DNA of 64,000 nt, taken from positions 32,001 through 96,000 of the IMG/VR virus record IMGVR_UViG_3300009709_000003. The stretch is one strand, 5' to 3'. The translations under genes were made by a program, and so were the position numbers. The notes under the pieces are model-generated. The model made no database searches and was not told where the DNA came from. It saw only the letters and a program-made list of their open reading frames with translations. This document shows positions 33,715 to 63,007 of the stretch, piece by piece; the first letter of the stretch is position 1; each line of letters begins with the position of its first letter. The stretch comes from a virus.

Positions 33715-33730
33715 TGGCAGGACTCTTGCA
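33715..33730 (+). promoter_or_regulatory. sigma54 promoter (-24/-12)
   Basis: TGGCAGGACTCTTGCA upstream of the transglycosylase gene. Confidence 0.65.
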
Positions 33731-33766
33731 ATGTTTTCAGTACTAAATTCAACCACAGGACTACCG

Positions 33767-34462
33767 ATGTATCCGTCTTTGAACAAACCGCTTCCTCCGA
33801 TTCAGGGATATCTTACCTCTGCACAAAACACCGGTATGACTCTAGAGGCCATGGCTGCCATTGCCGCAGCAATCAGTTTTGGCGTGAATTTGGCAGTTCT
33901 TGCTTACGGGTTGGCCGCATTTCAATCTCACATTGATCAGAAGTTGCAGGATGTGGATAACCATCTTGGTGTAGTTGAAACTCGTTTACATGAAGACATG
34001 GACGTCAACGTTATCAATCTGAAAATTCACGTATTGAAACGTGACGTAGACCCTGCTTTTGCGGTGCAAATTGCAAAGTTGGTATCTAAGTATGCAAAAA
34101 TCTATCAGCGTGACCCAGACTTGATTTTGGCAGTCATTAAGGTGGAATCGGGTTTCAATCCAAATGCAGTTAGTGAAGTTGGCGCTACCGGACTGATGCA
34201 ACTTATGCCGCACTGGATTAAAATTTTTGGCTTGACTGGCGATCTTACCGATCCAGAAGTGTCTATTCGTTATGGTATGCAAGTTTTGAACTTCTATTCT
34301 GGTATGTATAGTGGAAATGTCAAACTCGGCCTCATTGCTTACAATGCCGGACCGGGGTATGTGAATTCAACAGAAAAGCCAAACCCGGAATACGCTAACA
34401 AAGTAATAAGTGTTTACAACCAACTGAAAGAGCTTAACATTGGTAGCAGTAGCAACAACTGA
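33767..34462 (+). CDS. Lytic transglycosylase (SLT family) with N-terminal hydrophobic anchor
   Basis: VIKVESGFNPNAVSEVGATGLMQLMP, AYNAG; Ala-rich transmembrane segment; start moved to the ATG after a CAGGA RBS. Confidence 0.88.
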   Translation: MYPSLNKPLPPIQGYLTSAQNTGMTLEAMAAIAAAISFGVNLAVLAYGLAAFQSHIDQKLQDVDNHLGVVETRLHEDMDVNVINLKIHVLKRDVDPAFAVQIAKLVSKYAKIYQRDPDLILAVIKVESGFNPNAVSEVGATGLMQLMPHWIKIFGLTGDLTDPEVSIRYGMQVLNFYSGMYSGNVKLGLIAYNAGPGYVNSTEKPNPEYANKVISVYNQLKELNIGSSSNN

Positions 34463-34814
34463 AGATGTATTTACGTACAAGATGGAACCCGCTCCCACGG
34501 TTAATACCGCTAAGAGTGGCATTCCATCTATCGTAAATTGTTCCGTAATCATTAACCAATTTAATGATGTTGATGCATACCAGATAGCCGTATCTTTTGA
34601 TGAACAAATGTTTATGTTTTTTACTTCCAGAGAAAATACTATGGTCACTATTCTTTTAGATGGTGCACCTTTAGTGTACAAACATTGGAAGGACACAAAG
34701 TGGAGTAGGCATTCTGGCCGTGGCTATGACTATTTTAAGAATAAACTCCCTAGTGCGATTTGCGATAAAGTACAGCACATCATTTTAACCCGATTTAAGG
34801 AAAGTGCAGAATGA
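34440..34814 (+). CDS. Hypothetical protein (start uncertain)
   Basis: ORF coupled to the downstream lipoprotein gene. Confidence 0.45.
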   Translation: MVAVATTEDVFTYKMEPAPTVNTAKSGIPSIVNCSVIINQFNDVDAYQIAVSFDEQMFMFFTSRENTMVTILLDGAPLVYKHWKDTKWSRHSGRGYDYFKNKLPSAICDKVQHIILTRFKESAE

Positions 34815-35101
34815 ATTCTAAATTGTTTATTGTTTCTTTGGTTCTTGGTTTGTCTGCTGTTGGTTGCGTGTCCAAGTCCACCGGCAGCACCAAAAACGCT
34901 AATGATGTTGGTCACATTGCACAGGATGCAAATACTCTACAAAAGATCGCGTGCCGCGTGCAACTCGATCTGATGAGTGATGTCTGTGCGCCTGCAGCAA
35001 CTGGGAAAGTTACTGAACTTTGTGTCAAGGTTGATGGTAAACTTGGTTTGTGTGCACCCGTTTTGGTGGTGGACCCAAACACCGTTTCTCCGTCTCCATG
35101 A
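34811..35101 (+). CDS. Lipoprotein
   Basis: MNSKLFIVSLVLGLSAVG-C lipobox. Confidence 0.65.
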   Translation: MNSKLFIVSLVLGLSAVGCVSKSTGSTKNANDVGHIAQDANTLQKIACRVQLDLMSDVCAPAATGKVTELCVKVDGKLGLCAPVLVVDPNTVSPSP

Positions 35102-35249
35102 TTCAATTCATTTGCGTCCTACATAATAAAACGCACGTCTTTAGCATGAGTGATATCATTCTTGCTAAAGACGAAGCGTCTGCCGCTAAATTATATAGAG
35201 ACTTACTACCAGATAGTGCGCAACATCTATCTATCAGCGCACACAGACT

Positions 35250-35972
35250 TTAGGCTAAAATTGCAGCGTACATACTGTCTCGACGGGCTCTGTTAATCTC
35301 TGTAGCTTTTTCGACTGGGCCACGCACAATACCATCAGAAAAACCAAGTGCAGCTGCTTCAGTGGTAGAGAAATACGCATCTACTTTGCTGTCGAAGTTG
35401 TCACGCAAAAATTTAGCAATTTCTTCTTCTGAAGAATTGGCGAAGCGTCCTTGTGATCGAAGTCTAGCTGTGTAAATGCGTTCCATCATTTTGTTGCTAC
35501 GTTGTAGAGACGCATAGGCACTTTCTGCTTCACCCTTAGCAGTACCTTCAAAACCCCAATATCCATAGTGAATCATGTATTCTGTTGGAGGACGCATCAC
35601 AAACTTGTCAGCTGCAAGCGGAATAATACTTGTCATACTGCGACAATGCTTTAAACCAATAATTGTAGTAGGATTAGGACTATTTAGAAGAGCACCAAAC
35701 ATTTGCATGCCATCTTCCCAATTCCCACCTTCAGATCCCAAATAAATCGTAATAGGTTTAGTAGGATCCAGTTTAGCAAGAAAACACATGTTTTGTTCAA
35801 AACGATCAGCCATGGCGAAAGTTACGCCATGCTCAACACCTACTTCTGCAATGTGGTCTTCACGCTCATCGCTGCCCACATAAATAGTGAATGCGTCTGC
35901 ATCGATACGGCAATCCTGCCAAGTCCAAAGTCTATTTTCGAAAGTTGAGTACCTAGATTTTGGTGTCGCCAT
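35250..35972 (-). CDS. ClpP-like serine protease
   Basis: PITIYLGSEGG, CRSMTSII (Ser), YMIHYG (His), YFSTTEAAALGFSD. Confidence 0.8.
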   Translation of the reverse strand: MATPKSRYSTFENRLWTWQDCRIDADAFTIYVGSDEREDHIAEVGVEHGVTFAMADRFEQNMCFLAKLDPTKPITIYLGSEGGNWEDGMQMFGALLNSPNPTTIIGLKHCRSMTSIIPLAADKFVMRPPTEYMIHYGYWGFEGTAKGEAESAYASLQRSNKMMERIYTARLRSQGRFANSSEEEIAKFLRDNFDSKVDAYFSTTEAAALGFSDGIVRGPVEKATEINRARRDSMYAAILA

Positions 35973-36093
35973 AATTGCATACCTTTATACTATATGTGAG
36001 CCATATCGGCGCATCTATTATGTAATCATATCTAATGGGTGCTTCGAGATACCAATCAAAGAACAACGCCATATTAAAATCTGAGGTATAACA

Positions 36094-37008
36094 ATGACAC
36101 AAAACGTGAAAGCTCTTTGCATAGATGGTGGCGGTATACGAGGTTTGATACCACTGGTAAGCCTTGCTTATTTGGAACAAAAAACCGGGAAACCATGCAA
36201 TCAATTGTTTAATTATATTGGTGGTACATCTACGGGAGGCATTATAGCCCTGGGTCTTGCCGCTGGTCTACCAGCAACCACATTAACCGCTCTATATGTG
36301 CAGCAGGGTGCAAAAATATTCTCAAGTTCGTGGTGGTACAAGTTAACCAACCTGGGAAACTTTGCCGGACCTAAATATCCAGCGAGTGGTATAGAGAGTG
36401 TTTTGAAAGTGCAATTTAACAATCAAACCACTAAAGATCTAAAGACCAATGCTATGGTGGTTTCTTACAATATATCAAATCATACTGTTAAATTGTTTAA
36501 CAGCTGGGAAGACCAAACATATTATATTAGAGATCTGTGCAGAGCGACAACTGCCGCGCCTACATATTTTCCACCCGCCAATATCGGCAACACTAACGGT
36601 ACGGACAAGTCTTGGTACATAGATGGCGGCTTGGTAGCAAACAATCCAAGTATGTGTTTGGTTACTGAGATCTGCAAAAGAGAACAAACCATACCAGCCA
36701 ATATATCAATGCTTTCATTAGGTACTGGTCTCAATGAGGGTTCAATCGATGGTACAGTGGCAAGTAAATGGGGAGAACTCCCTTGGGCTTCTAATGTTAT
36801 AGACGTTGGAATGAATGGCACACAGGATTTGGCAGACACACAAGCATCTTTGGTGCTTAGTCGATATGTACGAGTGCAACCCCCAAATGGTTTAGCCTCT
36901 CAATCTATGGACGACGTTTCCACCGGATCCTTAAAGACATTGCAAGATATAGGTACACGCATGGTCGCACTGTGTGGTGATAGTATGCTTGCATTGGTGA
37001 ACTCATGA
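36094..37008 (+). CDS. Patatin-like phospholipase
   Basis: DGGGIRG, GTSTG, AAPTYFPP, IDGGLVANNP. Confidence 0.9.
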   Translation: MTQNVKALCIDGGGIRGLIPLVSLAYLEQKTGKPCNQLFNYIGGTSTGGIIALGLAAGLPATTLTALYVQQGAKIFSSSWWYKLTNLGNFAGPKYPASGIESVLKVQFNNQTTKDLKTNAMVVSYNISNHTVKLFNSWEDQTYYIRDLCRATTAAPTYFPPANIGNTNGTDKSWYIDGGLVANNPSMCLVTEICKREQTIPANISMLSLGTGLNEGSIDGTVASKWGELPWASNVIDVGMNGTQDLADTQASLVLSRYVRVQPPNGLASQSMDDVSTGSLKTLQDIGTRMVALCGDSMLALVNS

Positions 37009-37340
37009 GTAACGTATTAGACGCTTGGCTTCGACAGCTTGCTGAAACAATTGCTAAGTTGAAAAACACGCCTTTCCCTACATCTGTAGTGGGATTACGC
37101 GTAAAATTTTATACAGAAACTGAGCAATATGTCATCTGCAGAGTTGCAAACGCGGCGCAAGTTATGCCATCTTTAAGGGCTAACGTTCGCCCTGAGCCGT
37201 ATGACAAATTGCTTGAAGGTGCTGGGCCAGAAGGGGTACGTATGCGTCTAGAGTATATTCTTGATTCTGATTCGGACGCTAATCTAGTGCAGGCTGATGA
37301 TATGGCACAGTCCACACGCTGGACCAATTTTAAAATCTAA
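37005..37340 (+). CDS. Hypothetical protein
   Basis: 111 aa, ATGA-coupled to patatin. Confidence 0.55.
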   Translation: MSNVLDAWLRQLAETIAKLKNTPFPTSVVGLRVKFYTETEQYVICRVANAAQVMPSLRANVRPEPYDKLLEGAGPEGVRMRLEYILDSDSDANLVQADDMAQSTRWTNFKI

Positions 37341-39287: not shown

Positions 39288-39355
39288 AAAATCTCCAGTG
39301 TTAAGCTACTGGTTATTCGTATATATATGCCACTGTAGCTTTATGCCCGGCCAGA

Positions 39356-39646
39356 TTACTTACCGAATAGACGTCTGTATTGACGACCAGTTTTAGCATA
39401 TGCACGAATATGATTCTTCGTGTAGTAGTACTTGCCATCACGAGGACTATCCCACTCATTCCATGGGGATAACTCTACTTCGGCCTTATACACCAAATCG
39501 TCTTCTGTGTCTACAAGTTTAGAGATCTCGTGTAGTAACGCTCGTTGCCGGGATCTTTCCTTACCGGCGCGTTCCCTGGTGTAAGGACGCACAGACTCAG
39601 CAGTAGTGACTCCAGTAACCGGTGTATGCTTTTTAGACCTGCTCAT
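39356..39646 (-). CDS. Small basic hypothetical protein
   Basis: MSRSKKHTP...WDSPRDGK. Confidence 0.55.
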   Translation of the reverse strand: MSRSKKHTPVTGVTTAESVRPYTRERAGKERSRQRALLHEISKLVDTEDDLVYKAEVELSPWNEWDSPRDGKYYYTKNHIRAYAKTGRQYRRLFGK

Positions 39647-39651
39647 AAATA

Positions 39652-39936
39652 TTAGTAAACGTTGCGTTTTAGACGGGCATGTCCAGGAATAACTTGATAT
39701 TCTGGATCGTTATGCTTCGGGCTGAAAATCCTAAATCCTGGCAAAACCTTTTCATTTGGTCGAAGCTGATCTGCTGGCACTTCTGGAATGTCAATATTAA
39801 CATCCATATACGCGTTACCTGCACCCTTTTGGGCACGAATCCATTCAGCAGCTTCAGGAGCAGCCTGCCACAGTCTTGTTCTGCCAGTTTTCGTATTCAA
39901 AATGGTGCGCACAATATTCCAACATTCATTTACCAT
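39652..39936 (-). CDS. Hypothetical protein
   Basis: AGGAG RBS, 94 aa. Confidence 0.55.
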   Translation of the reverse strand: MVNECWNIVRTILNTKTGRTRLWQAAPEAAEWIRAQKGAGNAYMDVNIDIPEVPADQLRPNEKVLPGFRIFSPKHNDPEYQVIPGHARLKRNVY

Positions 39937-39952
39937 AATACACTCCTGTTAA

Positions 39953-40543: not shown

Positions 40544-40594
40544 GTTGTACTATAAGTATTAGAACCTAGAACAGTTTATTATTTATAAATACGT

Positions 40595-41107
40595 ATGCAC
40601 GAAGTAGTCAAAACAAGTAAATTTGTCAACGATGTGAATCGAATATTTGCACATCATATTAGTAAATTCGGGGGCATTAAAGCGGATGTAGTAAAAGATG
40701 CTCGTCAAGCGGCATGGGTGGCTGCTCTGTCTAAGATGCAAACCTGGGATCCCAACAAAGGTGCTAAACCTGGCACATATGTATACCGCGCTATACAAGA
40801 CGCTGTTACAACTACTATCATACAATGGAAAAGCCGAGGTCTTAATAAGGACATACGCAATAAAAGCGTAGATGAGGTCATAACTTACCTTGAAGAAAAT
40901 GCTTGTGATCACCACATTGAGATCTACGCGGCACGCGATTGTCGAGTACGACTAAACAAACTTACACCAGACCAAATAGCATTGATAAATCGCCATCTTG
41001 TAGAGGGTGTAACCACTACATGTATTGGTGCACAAGGTAAAAACAACCGAACTACTGTTTGGCGACAAGTACAAGTTATCATCAATACCCTAATGAACGT
41101 TAGATAA
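40595..41107 (+). CDS. sigma70/ECF-like RNA polymerase sigma factor
   Basis: DARQAAWVAAL..MQTWDPNKGAKPGTYVYRAI (region 2); LNKLTPDQ...EGVTTTCIG...RTTV (region 4). Confidence 0.65.
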   Translation: MHEVVKTSKFVNDVNRIFAHHISKFGGIKADVVKDARQAAWVAALSKMQTWDPNKGAKPGTYVYRAIQDAVTTTIIQWKSRGLNKDIRNKSVDEVITYLEENACDHHIEIYAARDCRVRLNKLTPDQIALINRHLVEGVTTTCIGAQGKNNRTTVWRQVQVIINTLMNVR

Positions 41108-41111
41108 GGAG

Positions 41112-43379: not shown

Positions 43380-43982
43380 TTATTTCGATTTCTTTCGGAT
43401 TTTATGCTTGACAGGTGTTTCAACAGCTTGTTGGGGAGTCATGCCTGTCTTTAATCGTGCATGCAGCGTTTCACGCTTTACGTCTGAAAGCACCGATAGC
43501 TCAGCAAGAGAATAAAACGACCCATAAAGCTCATACACTTTATTGGCAAATTTATTAATAATACCACCACTACAGGGTACTATGTATGGAAGTTTCATCG
43601 CCTCCTCTAAAGTCATACTACCATGCTTCATACGATAGTTCAGTGTTTGGTGTGGAATACCACAATACAAAGACCATTCTCGCAATGATTTCTTCGTGCC
43701 GTTGATTTCATACATCTTGGCCGGTCGATCACGCAAAGGAGTTTCGATAGCGCTTACCACACTCCAACCCCGACAATGCAAACGATTGTAAATTACGTTT
43801 GGAGTTAAGTTCAATTCTTTCCCGTATTTTTCACACAACTCTGTGATAGTTAGCTCTTCATTTTTATATAAATAACGTTTAGCCTTAAACCTTCTGAGTG
43901 ACTCATTTAAATATACTTCTTCTTCAGGTGTTCCGCGACGTTTGCGACTTTCTATAGTAGAATGATTTGGTGCTGAACTCAT
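43380..43982 (-). CDS. Triple HTH-repeat DNA-binding protein (paralog of 42735-43325)
   Basis: Same repeat architecture, shared TP(Q/E)EE motif and KSK end. Confidence 0.7.
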   Translation of the reverse strand: MSSAPNHSTIESRKRRGTPEEEVYLNESLRRFKAKRYLYKNEELTITELCEKYGKELNLTPNVIYNRLHCRGWSVVSAIETPLRDRPAKMYEINGTKKSLREWSLYCGIPHQTLNYRMKHGSMTLEEAMKLPYIVPCSGGIINKFANKVYELYGSFYSLAELSVLSDVKRETLHARLKTGMTPQQAVETPVKHKIRKKSK

Positions 43983-44016: not shown

Positions 44017-44032
44017 CGCAAGCCTCGTGCCA
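44017..44032 (-). promoter_or_regulatory. sigma54 promoter
   Basis: TGGCACGAGGCTTGCG upstream of 43982. Confidence 0.65.
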
Positions 44033-46656: not shown

Positions 46657-46672
46657 TGCAAAATCCGTACCA
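46657..46672 (-). promoter_or_regulatory. sigma54 promoter
   Basis: TGGTACGGATTTTGCA in an intergenic gap. Confidence 0.6.
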
Positions 46673-47112: not shown

Positions 47113-47316
47113 TTACCCTTGCTCTGCCGTGAAAAAGGCGCGGCGTTGGGCGTCACGGCGGTCAAGTTCCGCGTTGCATCTGCGAACGAACGACCATGCT
47201 TGAGAGACCGTGTCGGCGTCGAGGTATCCGTCTGCCTCCTTAATGCTGTCCAGTTCCGCCCACTGGTTTTCGATTGCTTGCTCAAGTTGCTCGTCTGTCA
47301 TAAAGTTAAAGTCCAT
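47113..47316 (-). CDS. Small acidic early protein
   Basis: Own promoter-RBS cassette. Confidence 0.65.
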   Translation of the reverse strand: MDFNFMTDEQLEQAIENQWAELDSIKEADGYLDADTVSQAWSFVRRCNAELDRRDAQRRAFFTAEQG

Positions 47317-47341: not shown

Positions 47342-47357
47342 TGCAAGAGACGGGCCA
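47342..47357 (-). promoter_or_regulatory. sigma54 promoter (cassette family A)
   Basis: TGGCCCGTCTCTTGCA. Confidence 0.65.
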
Positions 47358-47359: not shown

Positions 47360-47521
47360 TTAGAAATTCAGGCGTGGCTGGGCATTGGGGTTGATGTTCT
47401 TCTTTTGGAGACGGCCATGAACGGTCGCCTTTGACTGGACCATCTGGGTGGAAGATGTAGGCGTAGGTGGGAGGATTTCGATTTTGCCGCCGCGTGAAAG
47501 AAATTGCTCGATCGTTTCCAT
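47360..47521 (-). CDS. 53-aa SutA-like RNA-polymerase-binding peptide
   Basis: Not in track; METIEQFLSRGGKIEILPP; AGGAG RBS; own sigma54 site. Confidence 0.6.
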   Translation of the reverse strand: METIEQFLSRGGKIEILPPTPTSSTQMVQSKATVHGRLQKKNINPNAQPRLNF

Positions 47522-47556: not shown

Positions 47557-47572
47557 TGCAAAGGCGATGCCA
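47557..47572 (-). promoter_or_regulatory. sigma54 promoter (cassette family A)
   Basis: TGGCATCGCCTTTGCA. Confidence 0.7.
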
Positions 47573-47578: not shown

Positions 47579-47785
47579 TCACTCGTGGCTAGGCACATCG
47601 TCCTCGACGAAGTAGTTCTGGGTGTCTTCAATGACGTCGCCGCCATACCATTCAGCACTCCAGCCGCAAAGCTCCTTAAGCTGAGCTGGGGTGAGCTGCT
47701 TCGGGTCCTGGTCAACCGGGATTTCGACGTCTGCATACTCAACGGACTCGACGATTCTCGTGATTGTGATGGTTTTTGTTTCCAT
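47579..47785 (-). CDS. Small acidic early protein
   Basis: Own promoter-RBS cassette. Confidence 0.65.
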   Translation of the reverse strand: METKTITITRIVESVEYADVEIPVDQDPKQLTPAQLKELCGWSAEWYGGDVIEDTQNYFVEDDVPSHE

Positions 47786-47810: not shown

Positions 47811-47826
47811 TGCAAAGGCGATGCCA
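47811..47826 (-). promoter_or_regulatory. sigma54 promoter (cassette family A)
   Basis: TGGCATCGCCTTTGCA, identical to 47557-47572. Confidence 0.7.
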
Positions 47827-47827: not shown

Positions 47828-47902
47828 TCACTCGACCTGGTCAGACAGGCGAGCAATAAGGACTATCAGTACCAAAAAGAAAAAGGCGACTGGTTGTTCC
47901 AT
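47828..47902 (-). CDS. 24-aa hydrophobic peptide MEQPVAFFFLVLIVLIARLSDQVE
   Basis: GGGAG RBS; fills the slot between two cassettes. Confidence 0.45.
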   Translation of the reverse strand: MEQPVAFFFLVLIVLIARLSDQVE

Positions 47903-47932
47903 AGCTGCTCCCTAAGTTTAAAACGGTGCCAG

Positions 47933-48076
47933 TCAATAGGCCAGCTCCACCCGCAGCCATTGGGTGGTCAGGACGCGGGCCAGCGAGCGGCGGGCCAAGG
48001 TCTTGGCTTCCTCAATGGAGCGAGCCTGGATGGAAAGGACGAACTTGTTGTCTATAAAGCAAGAGTAGGTGTGCAT
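47933..48076 (-). CDS. 47-aa early protein (near-leaderless)
   Basis: MHTYSCFIDNKF...; ATG about 14 nt after the sigma54 -12 element. Confidence 0.5.
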   Translation of the reverse strand: MHTYSCFIDNKFVLSIQARSIEEAKTLARRSLARVLTTQWLRVELAY

Positions 48077-48089: not shown

Positions 48090-48157
48090 TGCAAGGAGGG
48101 TGCCAAATGTGGTAAGTAGGATAAGGTGGGATATACGGGGTTGGCACGGTCCCTGCA
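48090..48157. promoter_or_regulatory. Divergent pair of sigma54 promoters at the strand switch
   Basis: Minus 48090-48105 TGGCACCCTCCTTGCA; plus 48142-48157 TGGCACGGTCCCTGCA. Confidence 0.75.
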
Positions 48158-48192: not shown

Positions 48193-48381
48193 ATGACGAC
48201 GGAACTCGCAAGAACTCTTAAGTTGGTATTCCAAAACGGTCGCTTTGTGGCCAAGAACGCTTTCGGGACTATCTGCTTTTTGTCCGAGGACCGCCGTCAG
48301 GTCCAGGTCTGGATTGAGGAGCAGATTCGCATGTCGAAACTGCAGGAGCCGGTCCGCAGCCTGGCATCGCTTTTGCAATAA
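48193..48381 (+). CDS. Small early protein
   Basis: AGGAG RBS before MTTELAR. Confidence 0.55.
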   Translation: MTTELARTLKLVFQNGRFVAKNAFGTICFLSEDRRQVQVWIEEQIRMSKLQEPVRSLASLLQ

Positions 48382-48432
48382 AGAAGGTATGGGGAGTTAA
48401 GCACAGGTCGCAAGACTGGCACGATTCCTGCA
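48362..48432 (+). promoter_or_regulatory. Tandem sigma54 promoters
   Basis: 48362-48377 TGGCATCGCTTTTGCA; 48417-48432 TGGCACGATTCCTGCA. Confidence 0.7.
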
Positions 48433-48466: not shown

Positions 48467-48712
48467 ATGGGTAAACTCGAAGCCATCGCTCGCCTTGAAG
48501 AGATCAAAGAAGAGATGCAAGCTCTGCTTTTAGAGGCCAGTCATCTGGTGCGACAATACGCCGGGGAGCGCTCCATCTCAGACAGAGCACATGCCTACTG
48601 GGTGCCACATATCGAACAGGCGCTTGAGACAACCGGTTACGACACCGACATGACGGGTACCATCAAGGAGATGGAAGAGTCAATCGAGGAAGAGCCAGCC
48701 GAAGCTGAATAA
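48467..48712 (+). CDS. Small acidic early protein
   Basis: AGGAG RBS, 81 aa. Confidence 0.65.
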   Translation: MGKLEAIARLEEIKEEMQALLLEASHLVRQYAGERSISDRAHAYWVPHIEQALETTGYDTDMTGTIKEMEESIEEEPAEAE

Positions 48713-48767
48713 CACGGCGAAACCCCGCAGGGGGTCCTAGGGTCAGACCCTAGCTGACGAGCCGAGT
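48712..48767 (+). ncRNA. Hammerhead ribozyme, type II
   Basis: CGGC-GAAA-CCCC GCAG GGGG-UC / CUAGGG UCAGA CCCUAG-CUGACGA-GCCG; predicted cleavage after 48736. Confidence 0.9.
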
Positions 48768-48796
48768 AACAAAGTAACATACAACAAGCGGACCAA

Positions 48797-49003
48797 GTGA
48801 AGACCTACATCGTGACGGTGACGACGACAGAGATCTACGAAATTGACGCACCTAACATCCTGATGGCAGAAATGCTGAAGGACGGCATCCTGGAAGCTGA
48901 CGATATCGCGATCGAGCGAATGGTGATGGTAGACCGGTCAGTTACAATATCGACGACAGCTAAAATCGCAGATGTGGCACCAGTTTTGCAACAGAAAAAG
49001 TAA
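48797..49003 (+). CDS. Small DpnD/PcfM-like protein
   Basis: MKTYIVTVTTTEIYEIDAP...A. Confidence 0.5.
   Translation: MKTYIVTVTTTEIYEIDAPNILMAEMLKDGILEADDIAIERMVMVDRSVTISTTAKIADVAPVLQQKK
48975..48990 (+). promoter_or_regulatory. sigma54 promoter (cassette family B)
   Basis: TGGCACCAGTTTTGCA. Confidence 0.7.
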
Positions 49004-49018: not shown

Positions 49019-49516
49019 ATGAAGACGTTCATTGTAACACGCACCACGGTTGAGACTTTTATGATTCAAAGCGAAGACGCAGAAGGCGATATCGCGCACG
49101 GCAACATCGTCCTCGACAACGAAATGCCTACACATAGTGACACTGAAATTGTGTCGCGCGAAATGCTCGACGCGCCTGAGTACCGGGTTGTCATCATCGA
49201 AGAGAACATCGGTTGGAACGAGTTTAAGGGCGATTTTGAGAACGCGGAAGACGAAGCAGAAGCTAAGGAGGCATTCTACAAACACGGCGTTTACGGGTAT
49301 TCTGTCGAGATGCGCACTGTGGTTGACGGGCAATGGGACGACGTTGACAGTTGCTTTGGTTTCTTGGGCAACGAAAGGCAGTACATGTTGGACGTGGCAA
49401 TCGAACACATCCCAAAAGGTGTGGATGCCAAGATTTGGGAAAGTTTTTGCAATGCAGCTGAAGCTACTGAGACCAATGAAACGGTCACTGGTATTGGTGC
49501 GAGTGAAGCAGCCTAA
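49019..49516 (+). CDS. Acidic early protein
   Basis: 165 aa, AGGAG RBS; MKTFIVT start. Confidence 0.65.
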   Translation: MKTFIVTRTTVETFMIQSEDAEGDIAHGNIVLDNEMPTHSDTEIVSREMLDAPEYRVVIIEENIGWNEFKGDFENAEDEAEAKEAFYKHGVYGYSVEMRTVVDGQWDDVDSCFGFLGNERQYMLDVAIEHIPKGVDAKIWESFCNAAEATETNETVTGIGASEAA

Positions 49517-49518: not shown

Positions 49519-49568
49519 GGACGAAACCGCTTCGGCGGTCTGCTCGTAAAACGGGCACTGACGAGTCC
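49519..49568 (+). ncRNA. Hammerhead ribozyme, type II
   Basis: GGAC-GAAA-CCGC UUCG GCGG-UC / UGCUCGU AAA ACGGGCA-CUGACGA-GUCC; predicted cleavage after 49540. Confidence 0.92.
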
Positions 49569-49580
49569 AAGGAGAACGAC

Positions 49581-49889
49581 ATGGCAACGCAAGAGGAAAT
49601 CGAGGCAGTCCGCGACAATCTGGCAGACTATGGCCTCAGTGACGAGGTGATCTCGTTGGCGATCGACATATTTGGTGTTCATGCAGCGGATGCCCTTGAT
49701 GGCGGCGCTTATCAAGGCAAATACAATTCACTCAGCCACTATGCGTCAGAATACGTGGACGAAATTGGCCTACTCCATGGTTTGGATGACGTTATCGTCA
49801 AATATTTTGACTTTGAGTCGTATGGCCGCGATTTGGTGTCAGGTGGTGATGTAGTATACGAGAATGGCCACGTTTTTATTGCCAATTAA
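49581..49889 (+). CDS. ardA: ArdA-like antirestriction protein (C-terminal domains)
   Basis: AYQGKYNS..YA.EYVDE.G......KYFDFESYGRDL...D....GHVF; AAGGAG RBS. Confidence 0.75.
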   Translation: MATQEEIEAVRDNLADYGLSDEVISLAIDIFGVHAADALDGGAYQGKYNSLSHYASEYVDEIGLLHGLDDVIVKYFDFESYGRDLVSGGDVVYENGHVFIAN

Positions 49890-49897: not shown

Positions 49898-49913
49898 TGG
49901 CACCAGTTTTGCA
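49898..49913 (+). promoter_or_regulatory. sigma54 promoter (cassette family B)
   Basis: TGGCACCAGTTTTGCA, identical to 48975-48990. Confidence 0.7.
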
Positions 49914-49939: not shown

Positions 49940-50203
49940 GTGAAAAAGAACGCAGCGCAACAAGCCTTGACCAACGCAGTGAACCGCGCCATCGCAAATG
50001 GAGCACCAGTGTACGAGAATCAACCCGTTGAGACGCCAAAACTCAAAACCTTTATCGTAACGCAGACCATAGTAAAGACCTTTGAAGTGCAAGAAGACGA
50101 CGCAGATAAAGCCAAAAGTGCGGTATTGACGTCCCGTTTTATTACTGGGACACAGACTGTAAACACTGTCGTAACAGAGAAGCTCGAAGGTGGCGTAATA
50201 TGA
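49940..50203 (+). CDS. Small early protein
   Basis: Contains KTFIVTQT..KTFEVQ..DA module. Confidence 0.55.
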   Translation: MKKNAAQQALTNAVNRAIANGAPVYENQPVETPKLKTFIVTQTIVKTFEVQEDDADKAKSAVLTSRFITGTQTVNTVVTEKLEGGVI

Positions 50204-52814: not shown

Positions 52815-52836
52815 GATAGTATCTTACTTATAAATT

Positions 52837-52852
52837 TGGCATAGTCATTGCA
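52837..52852 (+). promoter_or_regulatory. sigma54 promoter
   Basis: TGGCATAGTCATTGCA upstream of the helicase. Confidence 0.65.
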
Positions 52853-52883: not shown

Positions 52884-53897
52884 ATGCAACTTCGAGATTA
52901 TCAAATTAAAGTCATCGACCAGGTAATCTCGAACATTAGGGGAGGGGACACGTCAGTTTTGATTGAATCTCCCACAGGCAGTGGAAAGACAATTATGGGG
53001 ATTGCTTTGGCCGCCAAACTCGGCAACGAACAACGTGTCGGATGGGTGGCTACACGCCGCAATCTGTTGGCGCAGGCCAAAGAGGCCCAAATGCAATGGG
53101 CACCTTCCATGAAATTCTTCCCTATCTCTGCCTTTGAGAAGTCCCCTCCCCTAGTTGACATTCTCATCATTGATGAAGCCCACCACACGGCGACAACGAG
53201 TATTTCAGACATCTTGATTCAATCTAAAGCCAAAATCGTCATCGGGTTGACTGCTACGCCCTTTCGTTCAGACGGTATGATGTTGGCGTTCAAGTCCCAG
53301 GTAAAGGGCTGTGGAATTCACACCCTCATCCAAGACGGTTGGTTGTCTCCTTTCGACCATTTTTCAATCAAAGATTGGTCACCAAAAGAAGTTGTGAACA
53401 CATATCTGAGAGAGCAAGACCGCTTTGGTAAATCCTGCATCTTTTTCCACACTCGGAAAGAGTGTCAGACAGCCATGAACCTGCTGCGTGCGGGTGGGGT
53501 AGAGTGCGAGTTGGTGACGGGAGAGAGCGACCGAGAGCGCCAACTTCATCAATTCGAGACCGGTAAGACCAAAGTGCTGGTCAACATGATGGTCCTCACT
53601 GAGGGTTTCGATGCCCCCGACTTGCAGTCTATTTTCATCCGGGATTCAAGTAAAGGTCCCACCATTCAGATGGGTGGGAGAGTGTTGCGGAAAGTGCCGG
53701 GAATCGCTGTAAAGAATATCGTCCAGAGTGTAAACACACGGATGCCGTTCACCCGGGTTGCAACGGCCAAGACGCAATATCTGTATGAAGACGATAGGTG
53801 GGTGAGTATCACCGCCAACCCACATGTTGAGAAAATGGTCAATGTCGCTCTCAGTCAGTTGCGACGCAACGTGTTGAAAAATATACGGGAGTATTAA
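52884..53897 (+). CDS. Superfamily 2 (DEAH) helicase
   Basis: LRDYQ, SPTGSGKT, IIDEAHH, GLTATP, LTEGFDAP, QMGGRVLR. Confidence 0.9.
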   Translation: MQLRDYQIKVIDQVISNIRGGDTSVLIESPTGSGKTIMGIALAAKLGNEQRVGWVATRRNLLAQAKEAQMQWAPSMKFFPISAFEKSPPLVDILIIDEAHHTATTSISDILIQSKAKIVIGLTATPFRSDGMMLAFKSQVKGCGIHTLIQDGWLSPFDHFSIKDWSPKEVVNTYLREQDRFGKSCIFFHTRKECQTAMNLLRAGGVECELVTGESDRERQLHQFETGKTKVLVNMMVLTEGFDAPDLQSIFIRDSSKGPTIQMGGRVLRKVPGIAVKNIVQSVNTRMPFTRVATAKTQYLYEDDRWVSITANPHVEKMVNVALSQLRRNVLKNIREY

Positions 53898-53900
53898 TCC

Positions 53901-53916
53901 TGGCACGAGAGATGCA
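53901..53916 (+). promoter_or_regulatory. sigma54 promoter (cassette family C)
   Basis: TGGCACGAGAGATGCA followed by AAAATCCCGTACCCTT, also seen after 48142. Confidence 0.65.
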
Positions 53917-53959
53917 ATAAAAATCCCGTACCCTTCGATCAACTTCCCAGGAGTTTAAC

Positions 53960-55024
53960 ATGATGAGCCAAGCAAGCCTGAACGATTTGAACGATTTCTA
54001 CACCAACGTCGTAAGTTTGCGCGATTTGTCCGTTCCTACCCCAGCAACCACCGACCGGAAAGCCGACCGCATGCCCAGCACTGTTTTCGTACATGGGCGC
54101 AAATACACAGCCGGTCGCCGTTTCTGGCAGTCCATCTTTGCGAAGTACGGTGTGGGCGACACTACCCTCCGTTATTTCACTCCTATGGAGTTGATCAGCC
54201 GCATCATCGAGCGCCGCAAGACCGACACTCTCCGTATTACTTCTATCTCTGGTCAACTGCAGGGTGTATCAGCCACGACCCGTCAGGAGACGACGCCCAC
54301 ACAAATCATCAGCTTGGGTGAACGCAGCGGGTTTCTCCCCGTTCAATATTACAATGGGGAACTTATCCTGGCGAAGTCGGTGGACCAAGCTTTCAAGATT
54401 GGCAACGACGAGTTCCAATTGAAGCACTATGCAAAAGTCCCTGTTGATGGCTACGGTAACCCTATGGTGATTATCGCACCAGAGCGTTTGGCCTGTCTCA
54501 ATCAGCTTGTGACTTGGGGCTTGGATTTCGGACAAAAGATTCAAATCGGACGTGGCATGTATCACGCCCTGGGTCAGGCCCTCCCAGCGTTTGAGAATGA
54601 AGAAGCCCTGGTGATTATGCGCAAGCGTCTTCAAGCAAGCCTTGAGACGGTAGCCAGCCTTGGTGAAGTACGAGAGACCCAACGTTTATTGGCAACCACC
54701 TACCCTAAGGCCGTGCCCGCATTCCAAGAAGCGGTTGGCGACCTGGCGCGTAAGTATGGCGTCACCAACTTGGACGCCATCGGACCGGTTCAGCAGCGCG
54801 TGCTCCCCACCGATGCCCGAGTGTATGACTTGATCAACATGCTCACCGAAGCTGCTACGCACGGCACGAGCCAGCATGTCACCACCAAGATGAACGCCCG
54901 CGTTGGCCGGTTGTTGGCCCGCCCGCAGTTTGATTTGGAGGGTATGGGTGACGAGGTGCCAGTGCAACCAAAAGCCACGTTCTTCACGCCCGAAATGTTG
55001 ACAACAAATCTGGATGCGGATTAA
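53960..55024 (+). CDS. Early protein, possibly DUF932-like
   Basis: 354 aa; DGYG...ERLACLNQLV; YDLINMLTE.ATH. Confidence 0.55.
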   Translation: MMSQASLNDLNDFYTNVVSLRDLSVPTPATTDRKADRMPSTVFVHGRKYTAGRRFWQSIFAKYGVGDTTLRYFTPMELISRIIERRKTDTLRITSISGQLQGVSATTRQETTPTQIISLGERSGFLPVQYYNGELILAKSVDQAFKIGNDEFQLKHYAKVPVDGYGNPMVIIAPERLACLNQLVTWGLDFGQKIQIGRGMYHALGQALPAFENEEALVIMRKRLQASLETVASLGEVRETQRLLATTYPKAVPAFQEAVGDLARKYGVTNLDAIGPVQQRVLPTDARVYDLINMLTEAATHGTSQHVTTKMNARVGRLLARPQFDLEGMGDEVPVQPKATFFTPEMLTTNLDAD

Positions 55025-55667: not shown

Positions 55668-55668
55668 C

Positions 55669-56682: not shown

Positions 56683-56885
56683 AATACCTACTTCTTCTAC
56701 TGCTCCCAGCGTGTGCTAGTGCTAGTCCTGTTCCTTTCCGTAAGGCCCAGTGGCAAGCCGGACAACAATGCGTTGTGTACCAACGTGCTAAGTGCCGAGG
56801 TAAGGCTGGCACGGTTTACACCTGTTATCTGTGTCGTACCGGGGACACTGAGGGTGAACCGTCAGATTACAACGTTCCCCGATAA
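56679..56885 (+). CDS. Small Cys-rich lipoprotein
   Basis: MKYLLLLLLPA-C. Confidence 0.5.
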   Translation: MKYLLLLLLPACASASPVPFRKAQWQAGQQCVVYQRAKCRGKAGTVYTCYLCRTGDTEGEPSDYNVPR

Positions 56886-57117
56886 ATCGGTAGAGCATGC
56901 GTCTTATACACACATACAAGCGAGAGAACGAAATGTAGAGAGACGCCGCCAAGCTGTAGCACCGATGATACCCGGTGAAGTGTAGCCTCGCACAGGAGCA
57001 TTGGACAACGCCGCGCTCCCGGCCTACAGCCAAATCGATACGGATGTCAAACTTTTTGGCAGGGGTTCGTCGCGTACATCCGGATTGAAATAGGATAGAA
57101 TAATTTCATTGTCAGAC

Positions 57118-57234
57118 AAAACCGATCGGTTTTGATCGCTCCCTTCTTCGTTTGATTTTCTACCCAATACCTCAGCACTTCGCTTAAGAATTTATACACC
57201 ACATATAATTGTATAAAACAAAACCGATCGGTTT
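57118..57234. repeat. Two copies of palindrome AAACCGATCGGTTT in a ~1-kb non-coding region
   Basis: 57118-57133 (16 bp) and 57221-57234 (14 bp). Confidence 0.8.
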
Positions 57235-58013
57235 AGTTCGTGCGCTTTACCTACATCAAACTACATTTGCGGTGCGTGTCAGATTGAACGTTCATACACT
57301 TTTAATTTCCCGCAGCCCCGTTTTTAAACGTAGCATTCGACGCGAATACTAGAGCCGCAACTAACCCACCGACGCAAAAGGAAAGTACACTCCCGGCCCT
57401 CCCAGATATGGTGGTACCCGAACTTACAGACAAAGACGCGGAAGCTTACATTCCTGTGTACGTTTTATCAGTAGAGTGTACGTAGCAACAAGTGGTCTGT
57501 GGGGTTAGATTTAGTCTAGGTAAGGTGTAAATCTGTTACGGGTTGAAATAGTCTACTTTCCCTTCTCCATACGGTCTTCATTTGTTCTTTTAAAAGAGGA
57601 GCGTATTTTCTGCGGCACGGACAAACGTCACGGCCCGTACAGGAGAATCAAGGTGAGTACGAGGGCCAATGTGTAATAACCTCTCCTACTGTTTATAGGA
57701 GGACCATAAGTACTAGAGGTAAGATCATTAAAACAGAGTAACATAACAACCATTGATGCGATTTTCATTTTATTTCTGCTAAGGATGGATGATGTTTTAT
57801 ACTTAATTCTTATAGAACATAAATAGTATATAAATGAATACGGTATGTAAAATATAAACAAACATGGGAAAGTGTACACACAGGGACTTTTACTCTGACA
57901 AACACACCAAAAAATCCCGGGTTGTGGGGTTACCGATGTATTAAATGTCGGAAATGGCGTCCACTATTTTTGTGGGGCGGCGAAGGTTGGCAAGTGGACG
58001 AGAAGGGAGAAGA

Positions 58014-58418
58014 ATGATGCAGGCGAACCATTTGATTTTTGCGGTAGGTAGTGTGGTAGTAGGGATTCTTGGAGTCGCATACATCCGATATTCGAAACCA
58101 TTTACGGAGACTAAAATTTCTGAGGTGGTGGGACGTCCTCGTTTAAATTGGGTGGTTGGTAGCTATGTGGCCGGTGATAAACTGTGGACTGCCGATGCGT
58201 CTTTCCATAAAAGAATCGGTCTAACCAGTCAGCAGAGCCATGATTTGATGGAGGGGCGGGCCATTGTGGTCGATGACATTTTATTTGATAAGCTTATCAG
58301 GGAACAAACTCCTTTCATCTCTTCCTATAAAGAACAAAAAGGCGTATGTTTAATGTTTCCAGTTATATGGCGTAAGTCAGATCATGAAAAGTTATATAAG
58401 GAATACTACTTAAAGTAA
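58014..58418 (+). CDS. Membrane-anchored hypothetical protein
   Basis: N-terminal transmembrane segment. Confidence 0.5.
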   Translation: MMQANHLIFAVGSVVVGILGVAYIRYSKPFTETKISEVVGRPRLNWVVGSYVAGDKLWTADASFHKRIGLTSQQSHDLMEGRAIVVDDILFDKLIREQTPFISSYKEQKGVCLMFPVIWRKSDHEKLYKEYYLK

Positions 58419-58419
58419 T

Positions 58420-58435
58420 TGGCACGGCGGTTGCA
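58420..58435 (+). promoter_or_regulatory. sigma54 promoter
   Basis: TGGCACGGCGGTTGCA, perfect consensus, intergenic. Confidence 0.75.
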
Positions 58436-58462
58436 ATAAATTCCTCAACAGGAGAGAAATAC

Positions 58463-60339
58463 ATGGGTACAAAGCAGCGTATGATTATGTGGGGGCCGGG
58501 TGGTGGTGGTACGGACACGCACGTACAGTTTTTTGAACGCGGTGATAAGAACGCCAACAAGTTATTTGATCAACTTGTAGAGCTAGGTATGCCAAGCGTA
58601 ACCGCTTTGAATGTCGTTCTCCACAGTTCAGATGCCAGCTATGTGGACGAAAAGGTCGAAGAATAATATGACAAACGAAGAATGGCAAGCACTTTGCATC
58701 CTGAGCAGTATACTCTTAGGGACAATGCTGGCGGTTCTACTGAAACGCTTTATCAAGCTTTGATTCTCGCTATGATGTGAGAGACGATATGACGGCGACC
58801 TTCAATTTATACGTGATAAACCTTCATGGAGTTCAAAATGACAAGAACTAAGTTAGATACGGCGGCGGATGTTTTGCGTTGGGCTGGAATGGGCTTTAAA
58901 GATATGGGCGACCTGGGTGACTACGAAACCGCCGCCTACATTGCGGATGCTGTGACGATGTATCGACAGCGGCTAATAGACCACCCTGCCACGACTAAAC
59001 GCGTTCTAGAAAACGAGCGGCTGCGCCAAGCATTCGATGCGCTAGAAAAGCTTGGCTACGACAGTGGCGACTTGCTAGTACTGGAAGTTTTACAGAGCGT
59101 ACGCAACACAATGAAAGACAACAATAAGTAATCGCCGGACAAAAATTAGTTCTTGTTCCTTAAATGTGAAATATAGCGCCTAAGTCCGTGATTCCCCAAT
59201 CTGGTGTGAGATACAACAAGGGGAGCAAACGGTAAGTGAGCCAATAAAAGATACCTAAATGTCCACGTGACACGCAAAGATACCGCTAAACGACGAAATG
59301 GGTTCATGTAAGGCGTATAGCATTAGAGATACTCTCAATAAACAAAGCATTATACAACCGAGTAGGGAGATTCAAATGATTTCACGGCAAGCTATTTTTG
59401 ATTCCGTAGTGACACAGATGTTGGCCCAAAAACGAAAGTCCATGATAGGTGGCAAGTGCAAATACCGTGGTGAGAATGGACTGAAATGCGCGGTAGGTTG
59501 TGTACTTCCGGATGAGGTCTATACACCTGACCTTGAAGTTGGAATATCAGGTTTAATTGCTAAGCTGAAGAAGAGATACGGCGATTGTGAAATGGTTCGA
59601 GAGATGTGGCGGGACGAAGACTTATTGCGGTCTTTACAGCGTGTTCACGACTATCAACCGCCTAAGTCTTGGTATGAACGTTTTGGTCTAGTGGCCTATA
59701 AGTATGGATTGAAAATGCCCACAGGACTTTTGAAGTAAGGAAGGCTTGATATGAACGACTCGGTCAAAAAAGCAACAGATGAACAACTCCAACAAGAATT
59801 GAAGCGCCGCCAGCAAGACCGCGAGAGGGAAAAGCAGCGAGAAATCGAAGAATTAGAAGATCGTATTGCATGTCTTAAAAATCCTAATAGACATTCTCGT
59901 AAGTGTACTTGTTTTGTGTGTGGTGGGGATTTTTAATGTACACACTTAAGGCAGTGGCAGCGGGGTTCTTGTTGCCGTTATTTGTTTTTTCCTCGCAGGC
60001 GTACTTTTCGCCTTTGTCTGGGCGATTGAGCAGTTTGGCATCCGGGTTCTCTGCGTGGTGATTTTCCTAATTGTGTGGTTTATAGGGTACCTAATGTCTA
60101 GGGACGGACGAGGAAAATAAATGAAGACTGGTATTTTGCTGTTGATGATGTTTGGTATTTCTGGTTGCGTTACTGATGCTAAGGCTTGTTGGGGAGACTA
60201 CTGCAAACCCGAAACTGTTTTGGTACGACCAATAAGGAATGAACATACCACCATTTATCAAATTGTGGATGCGGAAAACGGCATTGTTTGCTATACTCGG
60301 GGCGACGGTCTTTCGTGTGTGAAAGCGAATACAAAATGA
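58463..60339 (+). other. Small hypothetical genes (58463-58666, 58826-59131, 59376-59738, 59751-59936, lipoprotein 60121-60339)
   Basis: RBSs present; 59376 has CKYRG..GLKCAVGC motif; 60121 has lipobox ISG-C. Confidence 0.55.
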
Positions 60340-61121
60340 ACAAGAAAGAAGAACTTTTACGGTGGTTAAAGACAACCAGCAATTTCCAAGCGATTGGCAT
60401 GCCTGTAAGTATGCACGAACTCATCAAAGAGGCACTCGCTGAGGAGTTTAAAGCAGGATGTTCGGAAAGTGCGACAGCACTTAATCCCGAAATCGAGAAG
60501 TTGCAGCGTGAATTAAAGTCGCGTGCAGACGCCATCAAAGAGCGCGACGCTGCGCGTGCGGAGTTGGCGGCAGAGAAACGGCGTGCTGACCGTTTGGCGG
60601 CGGGCGAAGAAATTGAAAGCGATTATCTGGTCGCTTCCGACCATAAAATACTTGGACTTATTGCCGAACGCGACGAAGCCCTATCCAAACTGAGGCAACT
60701 GCGTGAATACGTTGAGACACGTGGTCAGTATTGGGCTTGGCGTACTGATCTACTTGCAATTCTTAATCCGCCGCGTGAAACCGTGCATCAGTATTGTGAG
60801 AAACACGAGGACTGCGCCTGTTTGGACAGCATCGCTAACATTGAAAGTACATCACCCACCAAAGTTGCATATGATCTTGTTGAGCGCGAAGTGGTTCTGG
60901 TGAAGGATCAATACAGTTCAAGTGCACAAGTTGTAGACTACCCATCTCATTTCGCCGAGATGAGGAAACATTTATGGCTAGGTGGGATCGCTAAAGTAAC
61001 TTTTAAAGTGCCACGTAAGAGTTTAGCAGAGCGTTTGGAGGCCGCAGTGGAATCCGGTTCAACGGAAGAATTTGCTGAAGCCATTAAAGCGGTACGTGAA
61101 TTGGAAAGTAAGGTAAAGTAA
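60336..61121 (+). CDS. Coiled-coil hypothetical protein (paralog of 45256-46239)
   Basis: Shared C-terminal module. Confidence 0.6.
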   Translation: MNKKEELLRWLKTTSNFQAIGMPVSMHELIKEALAEEFKAGCSESATALNPEIEKLQRELKSRADAIKERDAARAELAAEKRRADRLAAGEEIESDYLVASDHKILGLIAERDEALSKLRQLREYVETRGQYWAWRTDLLAILNPPRETVHQYCEKHEDCACLDSIANIESTSPTKVAYDLVEREVVLVKDQYSSSAQVVDYPSHFAEMRKHLWLGGIAKVTFKVPRKSLAERLEAAVESGSTEEFAEAIKAVRELESKVK

Positions 61122-61226
61122 TGTGGCGTTGGTTGTTGCTTCCTGTGTTGCTGGTTTACGAAAATACTGTGGGTTATGGCACAATCGACACCCTAGACAA
61201 AATTATTGACTGGATGGAGGACTGAC

Positions 61227-62984
61227 ATGATCAAAAAGTGGAGTGACGAGGAAATTAGTAAAGTGTGTGAAGAAGCACTTAGGACTTATGACCATCCACT
61301 TATAGTGGGACAGCTCGCCAGCATGCTGCTAGATGCACGGAGCGAGATTTCGGCTTTAAAGAAGCTATGTGAATATCAAGTGATAGCAGAGATGGTTTTT
61401 CAAAATGCACGTAATGATGCGGCACTGGAAGCCTTAACCAGTTTTGCGTTTTATGTGGCTCAAGAATGTGCAACTCCATTGGCCAACGAAGCTATATGTG
61501 AATTGCATCGTCGTATTAATGCTCTTAAGGGGAATACAAAAAGCCTATGACTGGATGGAGGATTGACTTGAACGAGGAAAAGCAAAACTTGACGCATGCT
61601 AGTCTAGAAGAAGAGGCTGAGCAGGATGCAAAAGATTACTGCATGTGTGGTGAACGCATGGACACCCACAGTGTATATAACAATCACAGTCCTGTTAGCG
61701 TGTATGATTATACAAAATCACAAGAAAGCGTAGATCATGAGCCTAAGTAAACGGTTGAAATATAGTGAAGGTGGCGAATTGCTTGGTCTTGATCCAGGGA
61801 TGGACATCATCGGAGAAATCGAAGATCTAGAGTTTTATCTTGATCAGGCTCATCAGGCTCTTCGACACAATGAAAAACTTCAACAGGATCTTGCTGTTAA
61901 CAGATCGGTCGAAACGAAACATAGTAATCTAAAATTTAAGTACCCAAGGGGTAGCAATCTTATTGATATCGACGGCAACATAGGTGAAGTTGTTGAAGAT
62001 AAAGGCGACACCGTGCACTACCGTGTTGGGCATGCGCAATTTGAATATACGAAAAACCACGTGTTTCCATACACTAAACGTGGTGCTTTTGAATTGTTTC
62101 TTCGTTGGGTCAGGAGCATTTAAAATGATCAAGTGTCCACACTGCCATCATTCTTGTATAGTACCCACAACAGAATGTATCAATTGTGAACGTTCACTGA
62201 GGGTTAAATCGTGAAAGTTAGTACTCTCTTAAAGAAAACGCGTAAAATCATCGCTAAAGAAGAAAATTGGACCAGAGACGCTGACGCTAGAGCCGCTAAC
62301 GGTAACGCCATAGGTGTGCATACCCAGGGAGCGTGCGCCTATTGTGTAGGAGGAGCACTGCAAAAAGCATATGGAGATCATTATTTGATTGGGAACACCA
62401 CATTCTTGAAAGCGGCCAGACTTTTACACGAAGATGCTCAACGTTATGGATTCCAAGGTTTTGTGCATGCCAATGACAGCGCAGCCACCACCCATAAACA
62501 AGTTTTACGGGCTATCGATCGATGTATTGAAGTTGCTAAAAAGGAGGAATTTAATGCATAAATATTTAGTTACAGTAGAGATGACTCGCACCGAGTTTGA
62601 CTCAGTCGAAATTGAAGTTGAGGCAAAGGACGAGAAATCTGCTCGTAAACAGGCAGAAGAAACTGTTAAGAATAATCCGAATTACGATGACTGGGAAGAT
62701 TATGACGCTGGTGCAGTCGAGAAATTGGATCCATAATGGTAGAAAAACATCCAGGATTGGTCATACTTTTGATTACGGGGGTTCTATTTGTAGGCATCGC
62801 CTATCTTATCTCTATTGAGGAGAATTGGGAACACACTAGTAAGTGTGAATACATCTCCACACATCATTGTTACTATCTAGATACTTATTCTACCCCAGGT
62901 ATGCATGTTACCTACACCTGCGTACTTAACAACGGCCCCATTACAACCCATCAAGATATCGACGTTCCAGGCAAGTGCAAATAG
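61227..62984 (+). other. Run of small hypothetical genes (61227-61550, 61568-61750, 61737-62123, 62211-62561, 62554-62736, 62736-62984)
   Basis: Coupled ORFs with RBSs. Confidence 0.55.
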
Positions 62985-62991
62985 TAAATCT

Positions 62992-63007
62992 TGGCATGTC
63001 TTGTGCA
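62992..63007 (+). promoter_or_regulatory. sigma54 promoter
   Basis: TGGCATGTCTTGTGCA; predicted +1 coincides with the ATG at 63019. Confidence 0.6.

Follow-up and report, generated by a model that had tools for sequence, protein, structure and literature searches.

What reads the promoters of the early genes in an uncultivated phage with no activator gene of its own? The question is raised by a short box, TGGCAY-N6-TGC in its strict form, which recurs about twenty times before early and DNA-metabolism genes of a phage from a moss metagenome (the only listed sequencing run with this DNA is a DNA library). The window analyzed here is a stretch of 64,000 nt, bases 32001–96000 of the 160,708-bp virus record IMGVR_UViG_3300009709_000003, which has direct terminal repeats and was judged complete; positions are those of the window unless the genome is named. 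A preliminary description, made from the letters of the window, had listed 16 such sites as -24/-12 promoters of a transcription programme built on sigma-54. According to our analysis, the boxes are probably promoters at which RNA polymerase of the host, as sigma-54 holoenzyme, transcribes the phage genes. That sigma-54 binds them, where transcripts start, to which timing class the genes belong and how activation is achieved are inferences from the sequence.

All 16 listed sites were recovered in place (for those on the minus strand, the list gives the lower coordinate to within +/-1). The loose pattern TGGY-N9-GC gave 106 matches in the window vs. 56 expected and is therefore only weakly informative. 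The strict pattern was found 13 times in the window, always between 44 and 63 kb, vs. 1.15 expected (maximum of 4 in 100 shuffles), and 17 times in the whole genome vs. once for the reversed control. Using a sigma-54 weight matrix, a crude one written from the published consensus and applied with a cut-off of 14 bits, we obtained 27 matches of at least 14 bits vs. 4.8 in shuffled sequence. When the spacer of TGGCAY-Nx-TGC was varied from N2 to N11, enrichment appeared at N6 only (17 vs. 1–7 matches in this genome), and the same was seen in the closest GenBank record, Virus Rctr197k (11 vs. at most 1). The GG and GC doublets of the box lie exactly 10 bp apart, as in sigma-54 promoters. The consensus of the strong sites, tTGGCAcg-N4-TTGCAAT, matches the extended sigma-54 consensus YTGGCACG-N4-TTGCW, which is said to come from Barrios and co-workers in 1999. 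Agreement extends over about twelve positions, the weaker ones included, and T or C precedes TGG in 16 of 20 sites and in 15 of the 18 from which the consensus was built. Information in the strong-site alignment is limited to the blocks tTGGCAcg and TTGCAAT; the spacer and the flanks are free, except in three copies of a 36-nt promoter-plus-leader repeat.

The boxes also stand where promoters would be expected. Strict sites are intergenic in 14 of 17 cases (intergenic DNA makes up 12.6% of the genome), and nearly all strong sites are intergenic and co-oriented with the next gene. The strand switches at 48105(-)/48142(+), as the preliminary description stated, and by the weight-matrix scan the head/structural block at 1–33.6 kb has no strong co-oriented intergenic site. 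Overall, the preliminary observation was confirmed. At most sites the distance from the GC doublet to the start codon is 26–44 nt, with an AGGAG-type ribosome-binding site; at two sites, 48105- and 62992+, it is 12–14 nt and no Shine-Dalgarno sequence is present. Two such distance groups would be expected from a transcription start 12–14 nt after the GC, as at sigma-54 promoters, in which case the transcripts would have short Shine-Dalgarno leaders or be leaderless. The 12 nt following the GC are 73% AT vs. 57% for the genome background, as expected of a stretch that must melt.

Box clusters were found in the early regions of three of the four complete relatives (45–65% GC; major capsid proteins in the clade 64–80% identical), where the early genes are not homologous to those of this phage. 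Rctr197k, which comes from a methane-oxidising enrichment culture (portal 52–56% and capsid protein 70% identical; 63–65% GC), has 14 boxes, 11 of them on one strand within 13 kb, and no homology to the early genes of this phage could be detected in its own. The GC there lies 13–14 nt before annotated starts at 10 of the 11 clustered sites and at two further minus-strand sites; the remaining clustered site (141070) has an unannotated in-frame ATG at an equal distance of 13–14 nt. This suggests that the clustered early genes of Rctr197k are leaderless. Within the cluster (L015, 128621–141956), TAT(A/C/G)AA(G/C)T and then the annotated ATG or GTG follow the box at 10 of 11 sites. The two complete IMG/VR relatives with clusters, G009 (166 kb) and G008 (178 kb), have 16 and 9 boxes, respectively, with AGGAGG-led genes 28–47 nt downstream, and each contains a back-to-back divergent pair resembling the one at 48.1 kb. 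A helicase homologue in G009 retains the box, as a TGGTA variant, 22 nt upstream. Because the box-bearing relatives span 45–65% GC, the trait appears to follow the phage clade across diverse hosts. The same range, together with the phage's own GC content of 43% and its strong AGGAG ribosome-binding sites, makes a host from the Myxococcota or other deltaproteobacteria, as first proposed, unlikely.

The box is not confined to this clade. In an exact-pattern scan of IMG/VR, five unrelated viral contigs (28–55% GC) were checked and found to hold 8–16 boxes each vs. 0–2 for the control; none of them has a homologue of the capsid protein found here or an activator that scores above the family cut-off. 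As the same 12 positions and the same spacing recur in unrelated phages of widely differing GC, host sigma-54, which is universally conserved, is the simplest explanation and is favoured over a phage-specific factor. Unrelated IMG/VR contigs also carry overlapping face-to-face box pairs that together make up a long palindrome, TGGCAC-N5-TTGC-N3-GCAA-N5-GTGCCA, frequently in runs of several (L023:12539–12706; L022:641–740; L115:547–580, 5436–5473 and 6652–6693; also L083, L126 and L087). As convergent promoters, the members of such pairs would exclude each other.

In the usual account, sigma-54 transcription requires an enhancer and an ATPase and is restricted to the stress, nitrogen and flagellar regulons of cells. 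No rpoN gene was found in the phage genome with the PF04552 and TIGR02395 profiles. The lack of an activator gene, noted earlier for the window, extends to the whole genome: PF00158 (Sigma54_activat) gave only an 11.6-bit P-loop match inside a DnaB-like helicase, and a six-frame pattern search revealed no GAFTGA-like motif in any gene. The sole loose six-frame match, GSFSGA at genome 148768 (+), was discarded, as it lies opposite a minus-strand PurZ-like gene. A census of Walker A motifs yielded six proteins (a DnaB-like helicase-primase, a RecA-like protein, a 38-amino-acid [aa] open reading frame [ORF] and three without assignment), none of which matches PF00158. In G008 a sub-threshold PF00158 match (G008:C1:3–596, -, over the contig ends) was judged by eye to be a MoxR-like AAA+ protein (Walker A GQPGTGKS), not of the activator type, and it has no counterpart among this phage's Walker A proteins. 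Comparative genomics gave no activator candidate: the only proteins present in all box-bearing genomes and absent from G001, the fourth complete relative, are a 270-aa unknown protein and a kinase-like one, both from the nucleotide-metabolism operon.

Several observations weigh against promoters of the sigma-54 type. The activator is missing from this phage's genome and was also searched for, and not found, in Rctr197k, G008 and G009. Neither 8-mer enrichment nor a dyad search detected an element shared within 200 nt upstream of the boxes. Five boxes at 47.3–48.1 kb lie 108–254 bp apart with coding sequence between them, and such packing into about 1 kb leaves no room for classical enhancers and is unusual for sigma-54 promoters. 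G001 has no cluster, only four scattered matches. In Rctr197k the hexamer reads TATAAA in 8 of the 11 clustered sites, so that the box can be read, in addition or instead, as an extended -10 promoter (TGnTATAAA). Placing immediate-early genes of the ardA type under a signal-gated activator would, moreover, be a risky phage strategy. A palindrome, CAAAACCGATCGGTTT(T/A)G, is present in two copies 102 bp apart (57116–57134 and 57219–57237) in about 1.3 kb of DNA with little coding capacity (56.7–58.0 kb), where an origin or an operator is a possible role for it. As a per-promoter enhancer it was rejected, being too distant from most boxes.

The proposed sigma-54 programme held as far as the boxes are concerned, which match the consensus in sequence, spacing, orientation and distance to starts and are conserved in relatives. 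It did not hold as a programme of sigma-54 alone, because the phage encodes two factors of the sigma-70 family. One is clear, a 273-aa RpoH/SigF/FliA-like protein (genome 117525–118346, L145:1366–2187; Sigma70_r2, 50–53 bits). The other is a weak, extracytoplasmic function (ECF)-like factor of 170 aa (40595–41107, +). Its Sigma70_r2 score falls on either side of the 24-bit cut-off, slightly above it in the genome scan (24.4 bits) and slightly below it by hmmscan (23.1 bits, E 6.5e-5), and its TIGR02937 score of 22.8 bits is below cut-off. These factors cannot explain the box, because the relatives that share it lack a Sigma70_r2 protein (none was found in G008, G009, Rctr197k or G001) and because its two blocks are too close for -35/-10 recognition. 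The blocks are 5 nt apart and form neither hexamers spaced by 16–18 bp nor TGnTATAAT; after the TGC only AAT is conserved. The sigma-70-family factors probably serve middle or late genes, where boxes do not occur. Consensus sites of the sigma-70 type are not enriched at 44–64 kb (21 vs. 26.6 expected), and TATAAATA and TATAAT k-mers showed only about two-fold intergenic enrichment with inconsistent placement. The few TATAAT boxes present (e.g., 46605- and 46967-) could give a first sigma-70 burst of transcription.

Instead of host sigma-54, the box could be read by a specificity factor encoded by the phage, a new sigma-like or polymerase-recruiting DNA-binding protein, and only resemble a -24/-12 element. 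Such a factor would account for the failure to find an activator or enhancer and for the dense tandem arrays; retention of the box within one phage clade and the many early proteins without a known family would suit it as well. We nevertheless consider it unlikely, as box clusters whose spacer is likewise N6 occur in unrelated viral contigs of 28–63% GC, no early protein is common to the box-bearing genomes, about twelve positions agree with the sigma-54 consensus, and a distance of only about 12 bp from block to block does not allow the -35/-10 arrangement that sigma-70-family proteins recognise.

Another possibility is that the sigma-54 holoenzyme does bind the boxes, which would then not be mainly promoters but roadblocks or insulators between tiny genes, or a sponge diverting holoenzyme from the host. 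This is very improbable, given that the boxes are strictly co-oriented with the genes that follow, keep a fixed spacing from the ribosome-binding site or from an ATG without a Shine-Dalgarno sequence, and have an AT-rich stretch after the GC, and that no other promoter class is enriched in the region, even though neither activator nor enhancer was found and PMC4591121 describes stable inactive closed complexes of this holoenzyme and many non-productive bacterial sites. A function of the motif at the RNA level, in the processing or translation of a polycistronic early mRNA, seems hardly credible. Its inter-cistronic position just before ribosome-binding sites and two candidate hammerhead ribozymes in the same region would agree with a role in RNA. 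The conserved blocks, however, flank an unconserved, non-covarying spacer and have no pairing potential, the motif is present at the divergence point (48090–48157), where there is no upstream transcript, and Rfam finds nothing at the boxes. The ribozyme candidates are two full-length, sub-threshold Hammerhead_II matches at 48715–48770 and 49521–49571 (+) (26.6 and 23.1 bits; gathering score 37), which lie between cistrons in the right early arm, in alternation with boxes. They suggest that early transcripts are also processed.

Read as host sigma-54 promoters, the boxes would drive two divergent early arms at 44–63 kb, whose cargo comprises tiny genes of the host-takeover type, an ArdA anti-restriction gene, a helicase gene and a DUF932-like gene. 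Further boxes would drive a few later operons, including the one for ribonucleotide reductase and the PurZ-like protein. The holoenzyme would sit as a closed complex on yTGGCAcg-N4-TTGCAAT, and transcription would begin 12–14 nt after the GC. Because there is no phage activator gene and no shared enhancer, the complex would have to be opened by something not located in the promoter DNA. The most likely agent is a host activator acting from solution, which would tie infection to the state of the host; a phage protein that has escaped recognition is a less likely one. Later genes would probably use the phage's own sigma-70-family factors. A more radical version, in which the clade fires sigma-54 promoters without any enhancer or canonical AAA+ activator, via a small early or virion-delivered protein that unlocks the closed complex, strikes us as improbable; if true, that protein would be the first activator-bypass factor from nature and would provide the phage with a channel of transcription kept separate from sigma-70.

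Leftward boxes begin at 44017..44032 (-; 16.6 bits, intergenic), 35 nt (GC to ATG) before a 200-aa gene at 43380–43982. A TGGTAC variant at 46657..46672 (-; 16.1 bits, intergenic) has its next ORF 123 nt downstream, with a TATAAT box between. Three tiny genes on the minus strand each have one copy of the 36-nt promoter-plus-leader repeat: a 67-aa gene (47113–47316) behind the box at 47342..47357 (-; 16.7 bits, GC-to-ATG distance of 26 nt, AGGAG ribosome-binding site), a 53-aa gene (47360–47521) behind that at 47557..47572 (-; 15.4 bits, 36 nt), and a 68-aa gene (47579–47785) behind that at 47811..47826 (-; 15.4 bits, 26 nt). The 53-aa product gave a weak, sub-threshold match of 18 bits to the SutA RNA-polymerase-binding domain. 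A weak and doubtful box, TGGCCC-N5-TCGCT (47982..47997, -; 14.0 bits), precedes a 39-aa ORF (47841–47960) by 22 nt from GC to ATG. At the divergence point, the leftward half of the back-to-back pair (48090..48105, -; 17.1 bits) stands before a candidate leaderless 47-aa ORF (47933–48076), the ATG of which lies 14 nt after the GC without a Shine-Dalgarno sequence.

The rightward half (48142..48157, +; 18.2 bits) precedes a 62-aa ORF (48193–48381) by 36 nt from GC to ATG, with CAGGAG. It is followed by two boxes in tandem, 48362..48377 (+; 15.4 bits), 90 nt before the ATG at 48467, and 48417..48432 (+; 18.2 bits), 35 nt before the same ATG, which starts an 81-aa gene (48467–48712). The box at 48975..48990 (+; 17.1 bits) lies within the 3' end of the preceding gene, 29 nt from GC to the ATG of a 165-aa gene (49019–49516). 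Between the ArdA-like gene (49581–49889, by ArdA family match) and a GTG-started ORF (49940–50203) is the box at 49898..49913 (+; 17.1 bits, 27 nt from GC to GTG). The ResIII/DEAD helicase gene (52884–53897) has its box at 52837..52852 (+; 15.7 bits, 32 nt to the ATG), and a 354-aa DUF932-like gene (53960–55024; a lead from the protein atlas) at 53901..53916 (+; 17.4 bits, 44 nt). The top-scoring box of the window (58420..58435, +; 19.3 bits) precedes a 67-aa gene (58463–58666) by 28 nt from GC to ATG. The last of the arm, at 62992..63007 (+; 15.5 bits), has an ATG 12 nt after its GC and no Shine-Dalgarno sequence, which makes the 136-aa gene at 63019–63429 a candidate leaderless gene.

Outside the arms, the box TGGCAG-N5-TTGCA at 33715..33730 (+; 16.2 bits, intergenic) stands before a transglycosylase gene recognized by an SLT domain match; its likely true start is 33767, where an ATG in the reading frame, preceded by AGGA, follows the GC by 37 nt. 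Sites beyond the 16 listed earlier are TGGCAA-N5-TTGCA at 58683..58698 (+; 16.0 bits, intergenic, next ORF 128–140 nt on), the weak 47997(-) box, and genome positions 21974(+), 104428(+) and 153358(-).

The surrounding gene layout, based on crude gene calls, comprises a minus-strand head and packaging block at 1–33.6 kb (portal, large terminase, protease-scaffold and a capsid protein 66–80% identical to that of relatives) and, at 44–64 kb, two divergent arms of small genes that include the ArdA homologue, the ResIII/DEAD helicase and the DUF932-like protein. A protein-atlas look-up of the two largest unknown early proteins identified one as DUF932-like and gave no match for the other. Elsewhere the genome encodes DnaE, a primase-helicase, RecA, ribonucleotide reductase, ThyX, dUTPase, dCTP deaminase, adenosine deaminase and a short PurZ-like homologue of adenylosuccinate synthetase; no tRNA genes were found. 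The PurZ-like gene (375 aa; genome 147703–148830, L144:304–1431, -) adjoins that for ribonucleotide reductase, and their operon is headed by the box at genome 153358(-). It is common to G008 and G009 and absent from Rctr197k. As a general explanation of the boxes the PurZ-like gene, with possible 2-aminoadenine DNA, was rejected, as Rctr197k has boxes and no PurZ homologue. In the head module, three large proteins (15677–16993, 21890–23611 and 30397–31938, -) carry unexpected domains, inorganic pyrophosphatase-like, DUF192 and a DnaJ-type zinc finger, and may be ejected cargo proteins. Among the GenBank phages searched there was no near-identical record, and a capsid-protein scan of 185,579 species genomes gave no relative.

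Compared with bacterial sigma-54 promoters (glnAp2, pspA and the flagellar classes), the phage boxes share the sequence, the GG-N10-GC spacing, the AT-rich stretch after the GC and a predicted start 12–14 nt downstream of it. They differ in that the phage has no cognate activator gene and no upstream activator sites or dyads, and in that boxes stand in tandem 108–254 bp apart, some of them directly before the ATG of candidate leaderless genes. Activators of the FlgR and CtcC type work without DNA binding. Together with promiscuous AAA+ domains such as the truncated DctD of PMC3844500, they illustrate that sigma-54 promoters without enhancers can fire from solution, the mechanism proposed here; no protein of this kind was identified for this phage or its host. 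Among other reports, Htm is a protein like the bacterial enhancer-binding proteins, of the AAA+ type and without GAFTGA (bioRxiv 10.64898/2026.10.06.757011).

Among phages, the nearest case is Pseudomonas phage YuA, for which a sigma-54-like promoter is attributed to Ceyssens et al. (2008), as cited in PMC10914365. Its sigma-54-like start site P015 was mapped by ONT-cappable-seq; the P015 region is linked to sigma-54, one region to sigma-70, and nine share a phage-specific motif (PMC10914365). YuA resembles the present phage as a lytic phage that carries a promoter of the -24/-12 type and encodes no activator. It has one such promoter, however, whereas in the present phage the box, with about 20 copies, is the prevailing promoter class that can be recognised in the early region and is conserved in the clade. 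Other reports concern phage proteins that inhibit the sigma-54 holoenzyme, and rpoN is reported to affect phage sensitivity indirectly. No phage sigma-54 regulon is described in the literature searched, only single predicted or mapped phage promoters (YuA).

What is new here is a clade-conserved early regulon of apparent sigma-54 type without enhancers or an activator. With early genes placed behind about 20 such boxes, either infection may be gated by host signalling or there may be a new way to open sigma-54 complexes, and either outcome would add a class to phage transcription strategies. The boxes could also serve as tight, orthogonal promoter parts. Their recurrence in unrelated viral contigs suggests that the use of sigma-54 by phages is under-recognised.

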